This document shows, piece by piece, positions 54 through 19,409 of a stretch of 28,641 nucleotides of DNA; positions within the stretch are counted from its first letter, which is position 1; the number at the start of each line of letters is the position of its first letter. The stretch lies in IMG/VR virus record IMGVR_UViG_2802429249_000009. One strand, given 5' to 3'. The position numbers and the translations under genes are program-made. The notes under the pieces were generated by a model, which did not search any database, was not told the DNA's origin, and saw nothing but the letters and a program-made list of their open reading frames with translations. This stretch comes from a virus. Taxonomy: Duplodnaviria; Heunggongvirae; Uroviricota; Caudoviricetes.

Positions 54-2103
54 TAAATCCAGAAAGACGGTAAAATCGGTTGAGCCGCAAATTTCCGACC
101 TCGCGAACTCATGGCTTAAATCTTACGGGCTTGATTACAGGCTGGAGCAGGCACCACTTAACAGCGAGATAGATAACGCCCTAGACGCCTATTTTTCGAA
201 AAATGGCGGCGCAGGTGGTAACCGTCCCGATGTAAAACTCCTTATTCAGGACAAATACGGCAGGCAGTATCCCGTCCTCATCGAATACAAAGGCTATAAA
301 GACAGGCTTATCCGGCTTGACAGTAACGGTATCATCGAGAATAAAGATTCCAGAAAAGAATGGAACTTTAAAAACATTAATGGATATGCGGTTAATGGTG
401 CAGTCCATTATGCTAACGCACTTCTCCAGTTTACCAACTACCCAGATATTATTGCGATCGGTATGACAGGCTGGTGCGATGATGATACAGGAGAACTTCA
501 TCATGAAATTGGCGTGTGGCATGTATCAAAGAATAATTTAGGGGCCGGGCAGAAGGTTGGTGAATACACTGATCTGTCGTTCCTTGCGGATAAAAATGTT
601 GACGGATTTATCGACAAGATAAAGCACCTTAATCTGCCGCCTGAGGAACTGGAAAAAATTAAGGCCAGCAAAGAGGAAGAGATAGACACTCGACTTTCCC
701 GTCTGAACAACGATATTTATCAGGATGAAAATGGGCTTGGCGAAAGTGATCGGGTTTATCTTGTTGTGGCCACGGTTATTGCCACTCTGGGTATTCCCGG
801 AAAACTTACCCCATTGGATAAAAGCGAGCTTGTATCTTCAACGGAAGAAGGGGAACGTGATGGCGATATTATTTTCAGAAAAGTTAGGAATTTTCTTACG
901 ATAAAGGGCGTCCCGAAAGACAAAAAGGATATGATCCTTCGTACTATGCAGAATACGCTGTGGACTGAAAATATTAATAAACCTGTCGATGGTGAAAGTA
1001 AGTTAAAACAAGTATTTATTAAAATTGTTAATGACCTGGGGGAATACTACAAAATCGGACTGACGACCGATTTTACCGGAAAGCTGTTTAATGAGATGTA
1101 CCGCTGGTTAGGGTTTACTCAGGATAAGCTGAACGATGTTGTTCTGACACCACCTTATGTGGCTACATTGCTGGCCAGACTCGCCAGAGTTAACCGGGAT
1201 TCGTATGTGTGGGATTTTGCCACGGGCTCTGCCGGGTTGTTGGTGGCTGCAATGAATGAGATGCTTATTGATGCCAGAGAGAACATTAACTCACCGGATG
1301 AGCTCAGACTGAAAGAAGCGAAAATTAAGGCTGAACAGCTACTTGGCCTTGAGAAGTTATCCAGTATTTACATGCTGGCGATTCTTAACATGATCCTGAT
1401 GGGCGATGGCAGCGCCAACATCCTGAACAAAGACTCACTGACCGAGTTTGACGGCAGATATGGTTTTGGTAAACCGGGAGAGAAATTTCCGGCTACTGCA
1501 TTCGTGCTGAACCCGCCATATTCAGCGAAAGGTAATGGTATGATCTTCGTGCAGAAGGCTCTTTCAATGATGGAAGGGGGGTATGCCGCGGTGATTATTC
1601 AGGGGTCCGCAGGTTCAGGTAAGGCGAGGGAGTACAACCAGAAAATACTTCAGGAGAATACGCTACTGGCCAGTATAAAAATGCCTGCTGATTTGTTTAT
1701 TGGTAAATCAAGTGTCCAGACATATGTTTATGTATTCCAGGTGAAACTGCCGCACAATTCAAAACATCCGGTGAAGTTTATCGACTTTTCGAATGATGGT
1801 TATGCCCGCTCGAACCGGAAAAAGGCACGAAACAACCTTGTGGATGTGGATCGTGCAAGAGAACGCTATCAGGAAGTTGTTGATTTGGTGCATTTTGGCA
1901 GAAGCCGCCTCAGTATATTTACGGAAGATGAATATTTTGAGGAGGTGATAGATCCACTCCGGGGGGACGACTGGAATCAGACAAAGCCTGTGGATACCAG
2001 GCCAACACTGGATGATTTCAAAAAAACGGTGAGTGACTACCTTGCGTGGGAGGTGTCGCAATTACTGAAAAAGCAAGGTAAAAACAATTCTGTGGGAAAG
2101 TAA
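1..2103 (+). CDS. Restriction-modification enzyme, fused PD-(D/E)xK nuclease + gamma-class N6-adenine DNA methyltransferase (Type IIB/IIG-like); 5'-partial, start lies upstream of window
   Basis: Frame 1 is open from base 1 to TAA at 2101-2103, with no ATG/GTG/TTG in frame before 463. Nuclease signature RPDVKLLIQDKYGRQYPVLIEYKGYKD is encoded before 463. Methyltransferase motif I (VWDFATGSAGLLVAA) precedes motif IV (AFVLNPPYSAKG), the gamma-class order. Motif recognition only. Confidence 0.75.
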   Translation, partial: PATSDQRPATSDQRPATSKSRKTVKSVEPQISDLANSWLKSYGLDYRLEQAPLNSEIDNALDAYFSKNGGAGGNRPDVKLLIQDKYGRQYPVLIEYKGYKDRLIRLDSNGIIENKDSRKEWNFKNINGYAVNGAVHYANALLQFTNYPDIIAIGMTGWCDDDTGELHHEIGVWHVSKNNLGAGQKVGEYTDLSFLADKNVDGFIDKIKHLNLPPEELEKIKASKEEEIDTRLSRLNNDIYQDENGLGESDRVYLVVATVIATLGIPGKLTPLDKSELVSSTEEGERDGDIIFRKVRNFLTIKGVPKDKKDMILRTMQNTLWTENINKPVDGESKLKQVFIKIVNDLGEYYKIGLTTDFTGKLFNEMYRWLGFTQDKLNDVVLTPPYVATLLARLARVNRDSYVWDFATGSAGLLVAAMNEMLIDARENINSPDELRLKEAKIKAEQLLGLEKLSSIYMLAILNMILMGDGSANILNKDSLTEFDGRYGFGKPGEKFPATAFVLNPPYSAKGNGMIFVQKALSMMEGGYAAVIIQGSAGSGKAREYNQKILQENTLLASIKMPADLFIGKSSVQTYVYVFQVKLPHNSKHPVKFIDFSNDGYARSNRKKARNNLVDVDRARERYQEVVDLVHFGRSRLSIFTEDEYFEEVIDPLRGDDWNQTKPVDTRPTLDDFKKTVSDYLAWEVSQLLKKQGKNNSVGK

Positions 2104-2162
2104 ATTTCCCGCTCAGCGATAAATTAAAAAGTGTTGAGTGGGGAGAATTCAGGATTGGCGAT

Positions 2163-3239
2163 TTGTTCAATGTGAGCACTGGTTCGCTTATTTCCTCAGG
2201 GAGATTAAAACCTGGCAAAATTAAACGTGTTTCAGCAAAGAGCGAACAAAATGGCATCATAGGAGAATTTGATACGGAGTTTATGGATGATGCAAGACAT
2301 TATGAAAATTTCATAAGCGTTAATTTCTTTGGAGATGCTTTTTATCATCCTTATTGTGCCAGTGTCGAAATGAAGGTACATGTTCTTACATTAAAATCAA
2401 ATAAGTCTGGCTTTAATACAAAGTGCGGATTATATATTACCAGTATGATTAATAAAACTTTAAAAGGGCGTTTTAATTATGGTCAACAGTTATCGAGTTC
2501 CAAACTTAGGAATGGAGAATATTTCATAAGGTTACCGGTAAAAAATAATGTAATTGACTGGGATTTCATGGATGATTATATAGAAGAGCTGGAAGCGGCC
2601 CACATAGAAGAGCTGGAAACATACATGGTTGCTGCTGGACTGAGCGATTACCAACTCACGGAAAAAGATCATCTTATTCTGGAGCACTTTAAGGATGTTG
2701 AATTTTCAGGTTTCCCTGTTACTGAATTATTCTCTGTGTGCAATACGAGAAACATATTGTCCAGAGATATCACAGAAAACAGCGGAGATATTCCTTATCT
2801 TTGTGCCAGTCGTGAGAATAACTCTGTCAGTACTTATATATCCTATGATTCTTCTCTCTTGGAGAAAGGGAACTGTATTTTTATTGGTGGTAAGACATTC
2901 GTTGTAACTTATCAGGAAAGAGACTTTTTTTCAAACGACAGTCATAATTTACGACTTTATGTTAATAACGAAGATGGTAGAACAATGTTTACTCATTTGG
3001 GGCTAATTACATGTATTTATAAATCTATTTCACATAAATACTCTTGGGGTAATAGTGTTAGCAATAAAAAAATCAAAAATGATGTTATCTGGTTGCCAGT
3101 AAAAAACAAGTTACCCGACTTTTGTTATATGCATAACCTTATTTCAGTCATGCAGAAACTCGTCATCAAAGATGTCGTCCAGTACGCTGATAAAAAACTG
3201 GCAGCGTACAGGCATGTTACATCTGAAAAAATCGATTAG
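2163..3239 (+). CDS. RM specificity (S) subunit with two target-recognition domains (HsdS / BcgI-B-like); N-terminus uncertain
   Basis: Frame 3 ORF with two variable blocks separated by a helical spacer (DYIEELEAAHIEELETYMVAAGL). TTG 2163 preceded by AGGA is the first canonical start, but the frame is open from 2082 and a TRD-entry-like motif (FPLSDKLKSVEWGEFRIGDLFNV) lies upstream of 2163. Second half is markedly AT-rich. Confidence 0.7.
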   Translation: MFNVSTGSLISSGRLKPGKIKRVSAKSEQNGIIGEFDTEFMDDARHYENFISVNFFGDAFYHPYCASVEMKVHVLTLKSNKSGFNTKCGLYITSMINKTLKGRFNYGQQLSSSKLRNGEYFIRLPVKNNVIDWDFMDDYIEELEAAHIEELETYMVAAGLSDYQLTEKDHLILEHFKDVEFSGFPVTELFSVCNTRNILSRDITENSGDIPYLCASRENNSVSTYISYDSSLLEKGNCIFIGGKTFVVTYQERDFFSNDSHNLRLYVNNEDGRTMFTHLGLITCIYKSISHKYSWGNSVSNKKIKNDVIWLPVKNKLPDFCYMHNLISVMQKLVIKDVVQYADKKLAAYRHVTSEKID

Positions 3240-3370
3240 CAGAAACATCATACTTCCTTGCCAGGCAGGGGAGAGCGGTCAGATTATCGCGTTACGATGC
3301 ATGAAAAGCAGTTTACAATCGTAAAAATCTGGATACTCTGTTAAGAGTGGTCACTTCGCCACACAGCTTA

Positions 3371-3396
3371 AACCCGTCGCCAGGCGGGTTTTTTTG
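3371..3396 (+). terminator. Rho-independent terminator downstream of the RM locus
   Basis: AACCCG (3371-3376) pairs with CGGGTT (3385-3390), followed by a T-run through 3395. Confidence 0.55.
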
Positions 3397-3592: not shown

Positions 3593-3668
<76 letters not shown>

Positions 3669-3671
3669 TAT

Positions 3672-3746
<75 letters not shown>

Positions 3747-15197: not shown

Positions 15198-16690
15198 CAA
15201 TAAGTTTTAGTGCTGTTCCGTCGGATACGCTGGTGCCGTTGTTCTACGCCGAGATGGACAATTCTGCGGCAAATACAGCAGTGACCAGCGCGCCTGCATT
15301 ATTGATCGGGCATGCCAGCAACGATGCCGCCATTGAGGTTAACAGCCTGGTGCTGATGCCGTCGGCAGATTATGCCCGTCAGATTTGTGGGGCCGGGAGT
15401 CAGCTGGCGCGTATGGTTGACGTCTACCGTCAGACAGATCCTTTCGGTGAACTGTATGTTATTGCAGTACCGGAAGCCAAAGGGGCGGCGGCGACGGTCA
15501 GGGTGACAGTTACCGGAGAAGCAGAGGAAAGCGGCACCCTGAGTCTGTATGTCGGGCGCTCCCGTGTACAGGTGCCTGTGGTGAATGGCGATGATGCCAC
15601 TGCGGTTGCCACCGCGATTAAGGAAGCGGTAAACGGGGTTATCACCCTGCCGTTTACGGCGTCATCTGATGCGGGTGTGGTGACGCTGACTGCCCGCCAT
15701 AAGGGGCTGTATAGTAACGAGTTGCCTGTCTGCCTGAATTATTATGGTTCTGGTGGTGGTGAGATTCTGCCTGCGGGGCTTCAGGTCGTGACGGAAGCCG
15801 GGACTGCGGGGAGTGGCGCGCCTGATCTTACCGCCGCTGTTGCTGCTATGGGCGATGAGGCATTCGACTTTATCGGTCTGCCGTTCAACGATGCCGCCTC
15901 CATCAATATGATGATGACCGAAATGAATGACAGCAGCGGTCGCTGGAGTTATGCGCGCCAGTTATACGGGCATGTCTATACCGCAAAACTGGGAACGCTG
16001 TCAGAGCTGGTTGATGCCGGAGATATGCATAATCAGCAACATATCACGCTTGCCGGTTACGAAAAAGAAACCCAGTCGCCTGTCGATGAACTGGTTGCCA
16101 GTCGCCTTGCCCGTGAAGCGGTATTTATTCGCAATGACCCGGCCCGTCCGACACAGACGGGGGAACTGGTGGGGATGCTTCCGGCACCGAAAGGTAAGCG
16201 ATTCATCATGACAGAGCAGCAGACCCTTTTATCTCACGGGGTGGCGACGGCTTATGTGGAAGGCGGCACGTTGCGGATCCAGCGTTCCGTAACCACATAC
16301 AAAAAAAATGCATATGGCGTGGCAGACAACAGTTATCTGGACAGTGAAACACTGCATACCAGCGCATACGTTCTTCGCAAACTGAAATCGGTCATCACAA
16401 GCAAGTACGGACGTCACAAGCTGGCAAATGATGGTACCCGTTTTGGTCCGGGGCAGGCGATTGTTACTCCTGCCGTTATCAAAGGGGAGCTTCTGGCGAC
16501 ATATCGTCGGATGGAGCGTGCCGGTATTGTGGAAAATTACGATCTGTTTAAACAGTATCTGATAGTTGAGCGTGATGCGGATAACCCGAACCGACTGAAC
16601 ACGCTGTTCCCGCCGGATTATGTTAACCAGTTACGTGTCTTTGCGGTGGTTAACCAGTTCCGTCTCCAGTATTCAGAGGAGTCAGCATAA
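15194..16690 (+). CDS. Contractile tail sheath protein (Mu gpL-like)
   Basis: 498 aa; size, position before the tube gene and Mu-like module context. Confidence 0.85.
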   Translation: MTISFSAVPSDTLVPLFYAEMDNSAANTAVTSAPALLIGHASNDAAIEVNSLVLMPSADYARQICGAGSQLARMVDVYRQTDPFGELYVIAVPEAKGAAATVRVTVTGEAEESGTLSLYVGRSRVQVPVVNGDDATAVATAIKEAVNGVITLPFTASSDAGVVTLTARHKGLYSNELPVCLNYYGSGGGEILPAGLQVVTEAGTAGSGAPDLTAAVAAMGDEAFDFIGLPFNDAASINMMMTEMNDSSGRWSYARQLYGHVYTAKLGTLSELVDAGDMHNQQHITLAGYEKETQSPVDELVASRLAREAVFIRNDPARPTQTGELVGMLPAPKGKRFIMTEQQTLLSHGVATAYVEGGTLRIQRSVTTYKKNAYGVADNSYLDSETLHTSAYVLRKLKSVITSKYGRHKLANDGTRFGPGQAIVTPAVIKGELLATYRRMERAGIVENYDLFKQYLIVERDADNPNRLNTLFPPDYVNQLRVFAVVNQFRLQYSEESA

Positions 16691-17046
16691 TGGCAAAGAT
16701 CGCCGGAACCTGTTTTTTAAAAGTGGATGGTCAGCAGTTATCGCTGACAGGTGGCATTGAAGTGCCGATGAACACCAATGTCCGGGATGATGTCGTCGGC
16801 ATGGCAGGGGATGTGGATTACAAGGAGACCTGGCGGTCACCTTACGTTAAGGGCACGTTTAAAGTGCCCAAAAACTTTCCGGTCGACAAAATTACCACCT
16901 CAGACCAGATGACGATTACCGCTGAGCTGGCAAACGGCATGGTGTATGTGCTTTCGGCTGCATGGCTGCATGGAGAGGCTAACCATAATGCCGAAGAAGG
17001 CACGGCAGATCTTGAATTCCACGGCGAAGAGGGAGGATATCAGTAA
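16690..17046 (+). CDS. Tail tube protein (Mu gpM-like)
   Basis: 118 aa, start overlaps the sheath stop; followed by chaperone and tape-measure genes. Confidence 0.8.
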   Translation: MAKIAGTCFLKVDGQQLSLTGGIEVPMNTNVRDDVVGMAGDVDYKETWRSPYVKGTFKVPKNFPVDKITTSDQMTITAELANGMVYVLSAAWLHGEANHNAEEGTADLEFHGEEGGYQ

Positions 17047-17375
17047 TGAACGTGACAGAAATTGTTTTAAAAAAACCGGTGACAGCGCATAAAGAAACGT
17101 TGCATGTGCTGGAGTTGCGTGAACCCACGTATGACGAAATCGAGGCGCTGGGTTTTCCTTTCATTATTTCCGGTGAAGGCAGTATTAAACTGGACAGCCA
17201 GGTGGCACTGAAATATATCCCGTTGCTGGCGGGGATCCCGCGTTCATCGGCAGCGCAGATGGCAAAACTGGATATTTTTAAGACCAGCATGCAGATCCTG
17301 CGTTTTTTTACCCAGTCGGAGACGGGAAGCACCTCCGGAAACGACTCTACAATGTTGCCTGGTTCTGGAAACTGA
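17046..17375 (+). CDS. Tail assembly chaperone (short, in-frame product)
   Basis: 109 aa; immediately upstream of the tape measure gene. Confidence 0.75.
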   Translation: MNVTEIVLKKPVTAHKETLHVLELREPTYDEIEALGFPFIISGEGSIKLDSQVALKYIPLLAGIPRSSAAQMAKLDIFKTSMQILRFFTQSETGSTSGNDSTMLPGSGN

Positions 17376-17467
17376 ATCCACTGGAGCTGCGACGGGTGGC
17401 TATTTCGCAGTTTACAGAACTGGAAGCCGAGGCCGTCCGCATTAACGAGGAGATGAAGCATGGCTGA
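17046..17467 (+). CDS. Tail assembly chaperone, predicted -1 programmed frameshift product
   Basis: T7 tract at 17303-17309 inside the chaperone ORF; the -1 frame is open from 17282 to TGA 17465-17467 and reads YPVGDGKHLRKRLYNVAWFWKLNPLELRRVAISQFTELEAEAVRINEEMKHG, ending after the tape-measure start. Confidence 0.5.
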
Positions 17468-19409
17468 CAGTTTTCAGCTGAAGGCGATCATCACTGCCGT
17501 GGATAAGGTGTCGGCACCGCTGAAGGGGATGCAGCGCCAGCTGAAAGGCTTTAAAAAGGAGTTTGCCAGCCTGTCTCTGGGCGCAGCGGGTGCCGGAACC
17601 GCAGTACTGGGGGCGCTGGCGCTCCCGGTCAAATCTGCCATTGCCCTTGAATCAAAAATGGCGGATGTCCGGAAAGTGGTGGATGGTCTGGATACGCCGG
17701 AAGCGTTTAAGGCAATGACGGAACAGGTGCGCGACCTGTCAACAGAACTGCCCATGTCGGCGGAAGGTATCGCCGAAATCGTGGCGGCGGGTGGTCAGGC
17801 TGGCATCGCCCGTGACGAGCTGATGCAGTTTACTGACGACGCCGTGAAGATGGGGGTGGCCTTTGACACCACGGCGGAAGAATCCGGTCAGATGATGGCA
17901 CAGTGGCGCACTGCCTTTAAACTGACACAGGGAGAGGTGGCAGGACTTGCGGACAAGATTAACTATCTTGGTAATACCGGTCCTGCAAGTGCGAAAAAGA
18001 TTTCTGATGTTGTGACCCGTATTGGCCCTTTAGGCAGTGTTGCGGGTGTGGCCTCCGGAGAGATTGCCGCAATGGGGGCAACCATTGCCGGAATGGGGGT
18101 GGAATCAGAAATTGCGGCGACGGGGATAAAGAATTTTATGCTGTCGCTGACAGCGGGGAATTCTGCCACCAAATCGCAGAAAAAAGCGCTTCGCCTGTTG
18201 CGCATTGACCCGAAAAAGCTGGCGGCGGATATGCAGAAAGATGCCCGGGGTGCCATGCTGCATGTACTGGATTCTCTGGCGAAAGTGCCGAAAGAAAAAC
18301 AGGCTGCTGTGCTTAATGCGCTGTTCGGGAAGGAATCTCTGGGAGCCATTGCGCCGCTGCTCACGAATCTGGATTTGTTGCGAACCAATTTTAATCGTGT
18401 GGCGGATGCGCAGCAGTATGGCGGCTCAATGCAGAAAGAATATGCCGCCCGTGCCGCGACGACGGAAAACCAGTTGTTGCTACTGCAGAACCAGATCAAT
18501 GCGATTTCTTCCACGCTGGGGGAAACCTTCCTGCCTTCAATCAATGAAGGCATAAAAGAGATGAAGCCTTTTCTGGAAGAAGTGCGCACGTTTGTCAGAG
18601 AAAATCCTGAGGTCGTAAAAACCATCGCGAAAACGGGGCTGGCACTGCTGACATTTGGTGTTGCCATTGGCTCGCTGTCGCGGATGGGAAAAATCCTTAG
18701 TGGCGTGATGAATATGACACCGGCAAAGGGACTCATTACGTTACTGGTAGCGGGGGCGTATCTCATTATTGACAACTGGGAAACGGTCGGGCCGGTTGTG
18801 AAAAAAGTCTGGCAGGAGGTTGATCAGGTTGTCAGGGCTATGGGGGGATGGGAACAGGCAGTAAAAACAATTGCAACGGTTTCTGCCCTGTATATTGGTG
18901 TGAAAGCGGTGGCAGCCATTCGTGCAGCAACAGTCGCCCAGAATCAATGGACAACGGCGGCAGGAAAAACAGCGCTGAAATTAAAGGGGCTCGGAAAGAT
19001 CAGCCTCATTGGGGGATTGCTTGAGCTGGGCATGATGGCGCAGGAGTTTGAAAAAGAACATCCCTGGCTTGTTAAAAATTTTGTGGCTGATGCACTGAAC
19101 AGTGGATTTGGTCTGAATGATAAGTTCGACGAGTGGGGCAAACAGTTCCATGATTTTGTCTATGACATGACCGGATGGCAGATGCCACGTGGTGATGGGT
19201 ATTTATCTCCCGATAAACGCTACACCCCGAATGTATCACTGGAAAGGAATCAGCTGTTAAGCCTTTCATCTTCACCGGCAACCCGCAGCGAACTTAAGGT
19301 GACGTTTGACAACGCGCCGCCGGGAATGCGTGTCATCGATTTGCCGAAAACAGGCGATCCCTTTATGAAAATCACCCATGACGTTGGGTATTCACCTTTC
19401 AGGCGTTAA
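17460..19409 (+). CDS. Tail tape measure protein
   Basis: 649 aa; Ala/Gly-rich helical protein with hydrophobic segments; canonical position after the chaperone. Confidence 0.85.
   Translation: MADSFQLKAIITAVDKVSAPLKGMQRQLKGFKKEFASLSLGAAGAGTAVLGALALPVKSAIALESKMADVRKVVDGLDTPEAFKAMTEQVRDLSTELPMSAEGIAEIVAAGGQAGIARDELMQFTDDAVKMGVAFDTTAEESGQMMAQWRTAFKLTQGEVAGLADKINYLGNTGPASAKKISDVVTRIGPLGSVAGVASGEIAAMGATIAGMGVESEIAATGIKNFMLSLTAGNSATKSQKKALRLLRIDPKKLAADMQKDARGAMLHVLDSLAKVPKEKQAAVLNALFGKESLGAIAPLLTNLDLLRTNFNRVADAQQYGGSMQKEYAARAATTENQLLLLQNQINAISSTLGETFLPSINEGIKEMKPFLEEVRTFVRENPEVVKTIAKTGLALLTFGVAIGSLSRMGKILSGVMNMTPAKGLITLLVAGAYLIIDNWETVGPVVKKVWQEVDQVVRAMGGWEQAVKTIATVSALYIGVKAVAAIRAATVAQNQWTTAAGKTALKLKGLGKISLIGGLLELGMMAQEFEKEHPWLVKNFVADALNSGFGLNDKFDEWGKQFHDFVYDMTGWQMPRGDGYLSPDKRYTPNVSLERNQLLSLSSSPATRSELKVTFDNAPPGMRVIDLPKTGDPFMKITHDVGYSPFRR

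Follow-up and report, generated by a model that had tools for sequence, protein, structure and literature searches.

A probable programmed -1 ribosomal frameshift between the nuclease-methyltransferase and specificity parts of a prophage Type IIB-like restriction-modification system

How is the specificity part of a restriction-modification (R-M) enzyme made when its reading frame has no evident start codon? This question is raised by a locus at the 5' end of the virus record IMGVR_UViG_2802429249_000009 (IMG/VR; Caudoviricetes), a stretch of 28,641 nucleotides (nt) that is referred to below as the window. The locus contains an open reading frame (ORF) for a nuclease-methyltransferase (RM) and a second ORF for a specificity part (S) with two target recognition domains (TRDs). 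An earlier note, made from the sequence alone, had placed the end of the RM ORF at TAA 2101-2103 in frame 1 and the S ORF in frame 3, open from 2082. Both placements agree with the sequence, and frame 3 is -1 relative to RM. As possible explanations it listed a single-chain enzyme broken by one indel in an A5 tract, a two-subunit system with S starting at TTG 2163, a phase-variation point, a decaying gene and a sequencing error. Ribosomal frameshifting was absent from these options, and it is the reading that the data presented here favour: the RM/S junction is quite probably a programmed -1 ribosomal frameshift cassette that gives both RM and an RM-S fusion. The features of the junction are listed below.

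1-2103, + strand: RM ORF, frame 1; zero-frame product with C-terminus ...NNSVGK; its 5' end lies beyond the window
2014-2052, + strand: codons of DFKKTVSDYLAWE, a helix motif that is nearly invariant at the C-terminus of RM; it served to anchor the locus comparison and was found in 113 loci
2080-2084, + strand: A5 tract, the indel site proposed in the earlier note; not conserved and unlikely to be the shift site
2094-2100, + strand: G_GGA_AAG, a slippery heptamer read in the RM frame, where the -1 slip is proposed to occur; conserved across junctions
2101-2103, + strand: zero-frame stop TAA directly 3' of the heptamer, the point where unfused RM terminates; decoding at the shift site is probably slowed by it
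2100-3239, + strand: S part in the -1 frame; post-slip reading from GTA 2100 gives VNFPLSDKLKSVEWGEF..., followed by TRD1, a central repeat and TRD2
2106-2144, + strand: proposed stimulatory hairpin; arms 2106-2117 and 2133-2144 (12 pairs), 15-nt loop 2118-2132; begins 5 nt past the heptamer
2163-2165, + strand: TTG, first canonical start in the S frame; judged to be a Leu codon of a GDLF motif

RM and S in the window and in related loci

The RM ORF contains a PD..ExK nuclease motif (RPDVKLL...IEYKG, nt 226-294), and the Pfam profile VRR_NUC scored 23.0 bits on it, slightly below the cut-off of 23.8. A gamma-class N6-adenine methyltransferase was recognized by NPPY at 1510-1521 and by a match to N6_Mtase (Pfam; 68 bits). 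The PADLOC profile REase_MTase_IIG covered full-length RM with 752 bits, and a PADLOC profile of 637 positions, which we take to be the length of BcgI A, matched across RM with 148 bits. In frame 3, TAA at 2079-2081 is followed by sequence that stays open up to TAG 3237-3239. The S region does resemble specificity subunits, a point on which the earlier note had let its own reading depend: two stretches each of Methylase_S (Pfam) and Specificity_II (PADLOC) were found on the S ORF, giving a two-TRD specificity module. The Specificity_II alignment begins with profile position 3 at approximately nt 2109. When the ORF is read from 2082, its residue 18 is matched by position 2 of the Methylase_S profile, and this alignment thus sets in 10 residues before TTG 2163. 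The NCBIfam search returned a sub-threshold match to MAD2 methyltransferase alone, and neither the fused protein nor a profile built from 9 sequences had a sequence match in the PDB, BsaXI included. An AlphaFold2 model of P0019, a natural fused homologue (18-sequence alignment), had a predicted local distance difference test score (pLDDT) of 45.6 and was too poor for a fold search.

The earlier note regarded RM and S as parts of one nuclease-methyltransferase-TRD1-TRD2 polypeptide, and homologues bear this out. When the -1-joined RM-S was used as query, the enterobacterial matches (84-93% identity) spanned the RM part alone, and other relatives of about 850 amino acids (aa) covered RM plus one TRD. 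Coverage of the joined protein was 99-100% in dozens of matches at 52-57% identity; these proteins are 1036-1084 aa long and include some of Campylobacter concisus and C. showae. The TRD-entry peptide that had been pointed out upstream of TTG 2163 is present and homologous to the linker of fused relatives (LSDKLKSVEWGEF in the window versus LNEKLQSVKWGEY in the fused relative P0112), and the number of residues from the WEVS helix to the WGE motif in the -1-joined product equals that in fused relatives within one. Judged from these alignments, RM and S are predicted to form one functional chain in many relatives. It is also correct that one A added to the A5 run at 2080-2084 would give a single ORF, of 1079 codons from the window start. 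In the window itself, TAA 2101-2103 and the frame change interrupt such a chain.

The junction was compared in 41 loci from viral contigs and in a further 80 from species-representative genomes, where there were at least 552 matches and the best 80 were taken; the census totals 125 loci. Loci were anchored on the DFKKTVSDYLAWE motif, and 113 could be anchored in this way. The earlier note had suggested asking whether homologues are fused or split here, and both states occur: seven of the 113 anchored loci read on, while in 106 the RM ORF ends 26-37 codons past the anchor. A long S ORF in the -1 frame follows in 104 of the 106 split loci, the remaining two being a decayed copy with several indels (L070) and a contig that ends 3 nt past the RM stop (L098). 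The split loci come from Proteobacteria, Clostridia, Bacteroidota, Lentisphaeria, Saccharibacteria, Campylobacterota and others, as well as from viral contigs, and the hosts include Neisseria, Pasteurellaceae, Gilliamella, Shewanella, Bacteroidales, Gracilibacteria, Campylobacterales and cyanobacteria. Downstream ORFs are intact and approximately 370-430 codons long in more than 100 of these loci, and the transframe peptide is conserved as GK(I/V)xx(S/P)L(N/S)xKLxxV(K/E)WGE.

The heptamer, the stop and the hairpin

The main type is represented by 82 distinct junctions, and the heptanucleotide preceding the RM stop in them was GGGAAAA (53), GGGAAAG (25), AAAAAAA (3) or GGGACAA (1). Thus, 81 of the 82 fit X_XXY_YYZ in the RM frame (78 as G_GGA_AAR and three as A_AAA_AAA), and the stop stands immediately 3' of the heptamer in all 82 aligned junctions. 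The heptamer begins with the third position of a codon, which may specify L, S, E, V, A, P, G or Q; that position is G in 79 junctions and A precisely in the three with A_AAA_AAA. Since the same base is found under eight amino acids, the fixed base before GGA is, on this codon comparison, a constraint on the nucleotide and not on the protein. In three relatives (L025, L091 and L100) the -1 frame opens at GGG, so that the overlap of the two frames consists of the 7-nt heptamer alone. The stop lies 1 codon further downstream in L104 and 8 codons further in L028, and both retain the heptamer, a 6-nt spacer and the hairpin. The string GGGAAAG by itself is not unusual, with four copies in the window and 4.6 expected; what exceeds chance is its frame, its position and its conservation across relatives. 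A review describes G_GGA_AAG as highly prone to shifting in E. coli (PMC5009743). About half of the relatives have a Shine-Dalgarno-like (SD-like) GGAGG, GAGGA or GGAG at a distance of 9-11 nt on the 5' side of the heptamer.

The A5 tract, which had been put forward as the point of fusion, can be rejected as the relevant site because it is not conserved (E. coli relatives have GAAAAC in its place) and because it lies outside the frame overlap in several relatives, in which the -1 frame is still closed there.

The proposed hairpin is the centroid structure when the window sequence is folded, and across relatives the stem begins 5-6 nt past the heptamer. Covariation was measured on a gapless alignment of the 82 junctions. 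In this alignment, 93.6% of the hairpin cells were paired, whereas only 33-50% were paired when partners were slid by 1-3 columns. Compensatory change was found in five hairpin pairs, none of 500 shuffles attained any of five measures, and RNAalifold independently predicted the same stem. An example is provided by columns 26 and 48 (UA 33, CG 19, UG 19, GC 3), where C is never opposite A (Fisher p = 2.5e-7) and the synonymous third position of a Leu codon tracks the first position of a Lys or Glu codon. An intrinsic terminator was considered for this hairpin and rejected, as no T run comes after it. The Rfam search of 1900-2400 found no matching element.

Relatives of different architecture served as controls. 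Over the homologous 50 nt, the mean folding energy was -19.0 kcal/mol (z = -6.0) in 80 split loci versus -5.9 kcal/mol (z = -0.9) in seven fused loci, and the two ranges did not overlap (p = 1.3e-5). A covariance model of the 82 junctions gave 62-85 bits on held-out split loci and 24-37 bits on fused loci; on the window it gave 70 bits, the sole match in 28.6 kb, and it found no match in the second junction type described below or in the two-gene relatives. The fused relatives lack the heptamer and the strong hairpin, except L033, where an additional A within GGGAAAA has joined the frames: the sequence GGGAAAAATAGAT gives exactly ...LGK-ID..., and the hairpin has been retained. In two others (L093 and L102), a 20-nt deletion has removed the heptamer, the stop and the 5' arm. 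The two-gene relatives L037-L043 (47-51% identity) have a genuine ATG for S in the +1 frame, overlapping or just after the RM stop and 3-8 codons before an x(E/K)(Y/F)x(I/V)x(D/E)LF motif, and neither the heptamer nor the hairpin was found in them.

A second junction type occurs in enterobacterial prophages (L004, L005 and L013-L016) with a different linker (...LEREF...GG...). Here, A_AAA_AAG is followed by one codon, TAA and a different hairpin of 12-13 bp, AAACUCCCG...CGGGAGUUU (ACTCCCG...CGGGAGT). Fused Campylobacter proteins with this second-type linker have neither the heptamer nor the hairpin. We consider the second type to be an independent instance that supports the frameshift reading.

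The junction therefore combines what is looked for at a frameshift site, namely an in-frame heptamer within the overlap, a -1 ORF whose protein is conserved from the shift site onward and a covarying structure at a spacing of 5-9 nt downstream. Ribosomes translating RM would reach G_GGA_AAG at 2094-2100 with TAA in the A site and the 12-bp hairpin at the mRNA entrance. One fraction would terminate and release RM, the nuclease plus N6-adenine methyltransferase. The rest would slip back by one base, with tRNA-Gly moving from GGA to GGG and tRNA-Lys from AAG to AAA, and would then read frame 3 through ...GK-VNFPLSDKLKSVEWGEF... into both TRDs, producing the RM-S fusion. Having no start codon of its own, S would be made solely as the C-terminal part of RM-S.

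Several points weigh against a programmed frameshift and should be noted together. The L081 junction is the non-slippery GGGACAA in an otherwise intact cassette. The SD-like element of the window itself is weak (AAGG, 15 nt upstream of the heptamer). Both hairpin arms lie within codons of the conserved peptide PL(N/S)xKL...V(K/E)WGE, so that part of their conservation is at the protein level, and weak remnants of the fold (-6 to -11 kcal/mol) are present in some fused loci. As the sequences are related, the shuffle-based covariation statistics overstate independence; the folding contrast between split and fused loci is unaffected by this caveat. An independent start for S is possible in some relatives: among the 82 junctions, 5 have an ATG that overlaps a TGA stop, and the loop contains an ATG in 10 and a TTG in 16. 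Finally, what is observed is the frames, the signals, their conservation and covariation and the contrast with fused and two-gene relatives, whereas the slip, its efficiency and the resulting complex are inferred.

As regards the sole non-slippery junction, L081 may be an inactive copy or contain a sequencing error.

Other ways of making S

The best of the other explanations, which we nevertheless consider improbable, is an ordinary two-subunit BcgI-like system in which separate translation of S starts at TTG 2163 or GTG 2172 or, through termination-reinitiation, at a non-canonical codon close to the RM stop. There is no ATG, GTG or TTG in the S frame at 2082-2162 of the window, so TTG 2163 is indeed the first such codon in frame 3 and has AGGA 8 nt upstream, as the earlier note stated. 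In addition, PGAP calls the GTG equivalent to 2172 in L002, the possible starts mentioned above (ATG overlapping TGA in five relatives, ATG or TTG in the loop in about 26) could serve some loci, and two-gene RM+S systems do exist among the more distant relatives. However, the codon aligned with 2163 is TTG in just 40 of the 82 relatives, TTA in 21, CTN in 11 and others in the rest, and it is a non-start codon in 41. Such synonymous variation indicates the Leu of the GDLF motif and not a conserved start. A start at 2163 or 2172 would also drop PLSxKLxxVEWGE, a conserved peptide shared by the Pfam and PADLOC profiles and the linkers of fused relatives. Upstream of the WGE motif, 42 of the 82 junctions have no ATG, GTG or TTG in the S frame, and elsewhere the position of such a codon is scattered. 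The codon after GGG AAA is ATA in 52 junctions, GTA in 25 and ATG in 5, a mixture which argues that no conserved start exists there either, and the SD-like motif, 16-17 nt away from it, is too far to serve a start at the RM stop. Moreover, a separate start leaves unexplained the heptamer, the constraint at synonymous sites and the loss of the hairpin in fused loci, and the true two-gene relatives look different, with an ATG and neither signal. TTG 2163 and GTG 2172 were thus rejected as conserved starts on the codon variation across the 82 junctions, and no codon of its own from which S could be made as a separate subunit was found. The + strand at 1700-2170 has no promoter-like site.

Existing annotations of the S start disagree with each other: PGAP uses the GTG mentioned above in L002, a pseudogene in L003 and a CTG 55 nt inside RM in L004, and the phage record starts S at an ATG 180 nt downstream.

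A still less probable explanation is transcriptional slippage, in which RNA polymerase would add an A in GGGAAAG or in the A run and a fraction of the mRNAs would encode the fusion. The resulting fusion would be identical to that of a ribosomal shift, seven consecutive A occur in the second junction type and in four class-1 loci, and L033 shows that one additional A restores the frame. On the other hand, transcriptional slippage in bacteria usually needs runs of about 8-9 or more, and most of the loci carry three or four A. It also leaves unexplained the rule that X_XX is GGG or AAA, the fixed third base, and a hairpin that slippage would not require, that stands at the spacing of ribosomal frameshift sites and that is lost on fusion.

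The least probable explanation of all is a split that arose by frameshift mutation, in a pseudogene or at a phase-variable A5 tract, so that a single indel would restore an active single chain: although one inserted A joins the ORFs, fused relatives exist, a genuine repeat switch is present at the 5' end of RM and L070 is a decayed copy with several indels, decay and sequencing error are rejected by the recurrence of the same-codon split, with intact downstream ORFs, in more than 100 independent loci of many phyla, and a phase-variation point at the junction does not fit tracts that are merely A5 (itself not conserved) or G3A3-4 and show almost no length polymorphism, the junctions of 12 E. 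coli prophage copies being identical and homopolymer length differing, among the loci examined, in L033 alone.

Related systems and the prophage setting

We compared the predicted frameshift system with known R-M enzymes. BcgI and BsaXI form 2RM:1S particles (PMC3874165, PMC11997821), and the window system is similar to them in its RM, with an N-terminal PD-(D/E)xK nuclease and a gamma-type N6-adenine methyltransferase (NPPY), and in its two-TRD specificity part. It differs in that its S has no start codon and is reached, as proposed here, from RM by a -1 shift; the junction of BcgI type is exemplified by the distant relatives with a real ATG for S. In the layout of AloI/CjeI-type single chains (R-M-TRD1-TRD2), the predicted transframe product is collinear with the 1036-1084 aa relatives over 99-100%, and the relatives of about 850 aa resemble the HaeIV type (R-M-one TRD) in bearing a single TRD; the comparison with AloI, CjeI and HaeIV is one of layout. 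Unlike these single chains, the chain in the window is broken by a stop and a frame change, and RM alone is therefore predicted to be made as well. Having neither the separate S start of BcgI nor the uninterrupted ORF of the single-chain enzymes, the system is placed between the two. The earlier note had cited CspCI as a single chain, and a review places it among the RM+S enzymes (PMC3874165).

In EcoKI, M and S are also in different frames at the hsdM-hsdS junction; there, in contrast, S has its own ATG, which overlaps the hsdM stop by 1 nt, and the coupling is by reinitiation and not by frameshifting. An engineered EcoKI M-S fusion was active when extra M was supplied (PMC3510504), which parallels the proposed assembly of RM plus RM-S. 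The 1RM:2TRD ratio of single-chain enzymes has been called 'a mystery' in a review (PMC3874165). On the basis of that ratio, the 2RM:1S particles and the EcoKI fusion, RM and RM-S may assemble so that two RM modules are combined with one two-TRD specificity module, the shift efficiency setting the ratio. It is possible, although we stop just short of favouring it, that a widespread Type IIB family uses -1 frameshifting in this way as an assembly rule: the heptamer, stop and hairpin would fix the proportion of RM to RM-S made from one mRNA, S would never occur alone, the particle would contain two RM and two TRDs, and the family would represent a natural intermediate between the BcgI and AloI/CjeI types.

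Among known frameshift systems, the E. coli dnaX gene, in which one mRNA gives two products (tau and gamma) that assemble in one complex, is among the closest. Its likeness to the junctions described here includes an SD-like element about 10 nt upstream (found here in about half of the relatives), X_XXY_YYZ and a hairpin about 6 nt downstream (PMC5009743). The window heptamer ends with AAG as that of dnaX does, and the second junction type has A_AAA_AAG. The outcome is different: in dnaX the shifted frame stops almost immediately and yields the shorter protein, whereas here it is the zero frame that stops, and the shift would add approximately 380 residues. The heptamer of the lambda G/GT shift is G_GGA_AAG, as in the window, and both lambda G/GT and the OrfAB products of the IS3 family are alike in that a shift joins an upstream protein to a downstream domain without a start codon. 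The lambda shift needs no downstream structure and takes place at a few percent, and the proteins in the window belong to an R-M enzyme and not, as in lambda G/GT and IS3, to a chaperone or a transposase. To our knowledge, apart from insertion sequences and phage tail genes, bacteria have few genes with a known conserved programmed frameshift, dnaX being the classic case.

In the literature, including reviews on recoding and on R-M systems (PMC3711429, PMC5009743, PMC4066793, PMC3510504, PMC11997821, PMC3874165, PMC6211672, PMC6789123, PMC4996451) and with REBASE outside the scope, we found no report of a -1 frameshift of this kind in an R-M system. If the reading is true, a conserved frameshift in a defence enzyme of many phyla would be a large and easily tested new example, and it would offer a simple route to a 2:1 complex from one message, as well as a new angle on the stoichiometry of single-chain Type IIB enzymes. 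It would also have practical consequences. Annotation pipelines give such S genes arbitrary starts (GTG, CTG or a downstream ATG) or pseudogene flags, and cloning of the 'two genes', or of the S ORF alone, may yield inactive enzyme. In Shiga-toxin-producing E. coli, where the system occupies a late-operon slot beside or in place of the Shiga toxin genes (stx), its expression rules matter for prophage biology.

The locus is in the late region of a lambdoid prophage. In E. coli relatives (84% nucleotide identity), the order is Q antiterminator, hok, RM, S, then tRNAs or stx1, lysis genes and terminase. The window has, 3' of S, a terminator-like hairpin, tRNA-Thr, tRNA-Gly, terB and genes for holins, terminase, portal, capsid and tape measure. 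Features outside the junction are as follows.

1-52, + strand: CCAGCGA heptanucleotide repeats in the 5' part of the RM ORF, separate from the junction
3370-3391, + strand: terminator-like hairpin followed by a T run, 3' of S; probable end of the RM-S transcription unit
3593-3668: tRNA-Thr(UGU), just 3' of S
3672-3746: tRNA-Gly(UCC), just 3' of S

In L002 (E. coli 2013C-3033, Shiga-toxin-producing; locus 5287 onward), the RM-S pair is directly upstream of stxA1c, at the place where the window has the tRNAs and terB. E. coli relatives have tRNA-Ile, tRNA-Arg and tRNA-Arg where the window has tRNA-Thr and tRNA-Gly. The tRNA-Gly(UCC) decodes GGA and GGG, the former being the P-site codon of the heptamer, which may be a coincidence or mere codon supply. 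The RM:RM-S ratio in the prophage might also be tuned, for example by this phage tRNA, whose gene is 350 nt downstream.

The RM closest to that of the window (L005, 93% identity) bears the other junction type and a different S, and the closest junction and S are those of L012 and of the E. coli Stx1c prophage. Given this mismatch, the linker, TRD1 and the cassette seem to move together, recombination taking place upstream of the heptamer. Among the fused relatives of about 850 aa, L126 (P0112), L127/L128 (P0027) and L131 (P0093) end past TRD1 and the central helix, and in L126 a further gene of 311 codons, a possible source of the second half of the specificity module, starts approximately 60 nt downstream.

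The CCAGCGA repeats at 1-52 continue upstream of the window, and the RM ORF runs through them. In relatives L002, L004, L005, L009 and L014, an ATG (MILCCQTSDQR...) with AAGG upstream is followed by 9 to approximately 100 CCAGCGA copies. Copy numbers of 9, 63 and 66, which are divisible by three, keep this ATG in frame, whereas 55 and 82 do not. From these copy numbers, the repeats look like an on/off switch for RM that is separate from the junction, and the RM start lies beyond the window, behind a repeat tract that may be able to switch off the whole system. In PGAP annotations, RM starts at a TTG 3' of the repeats, or the repeats are covered by a 'YXWGXW repeat' protein on the minus strand.

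Tailed phages usually have a G/GT-type -1 frameshift just before the tape-measure gene. In the window, the tape-measure gene (17460-19409) is preceded by ORFs at 16690-17046 and 17046-17375, and a run GTT TTA AAA AAA CCG is located within 17046-17100, near the start of the small ORF before that gene.

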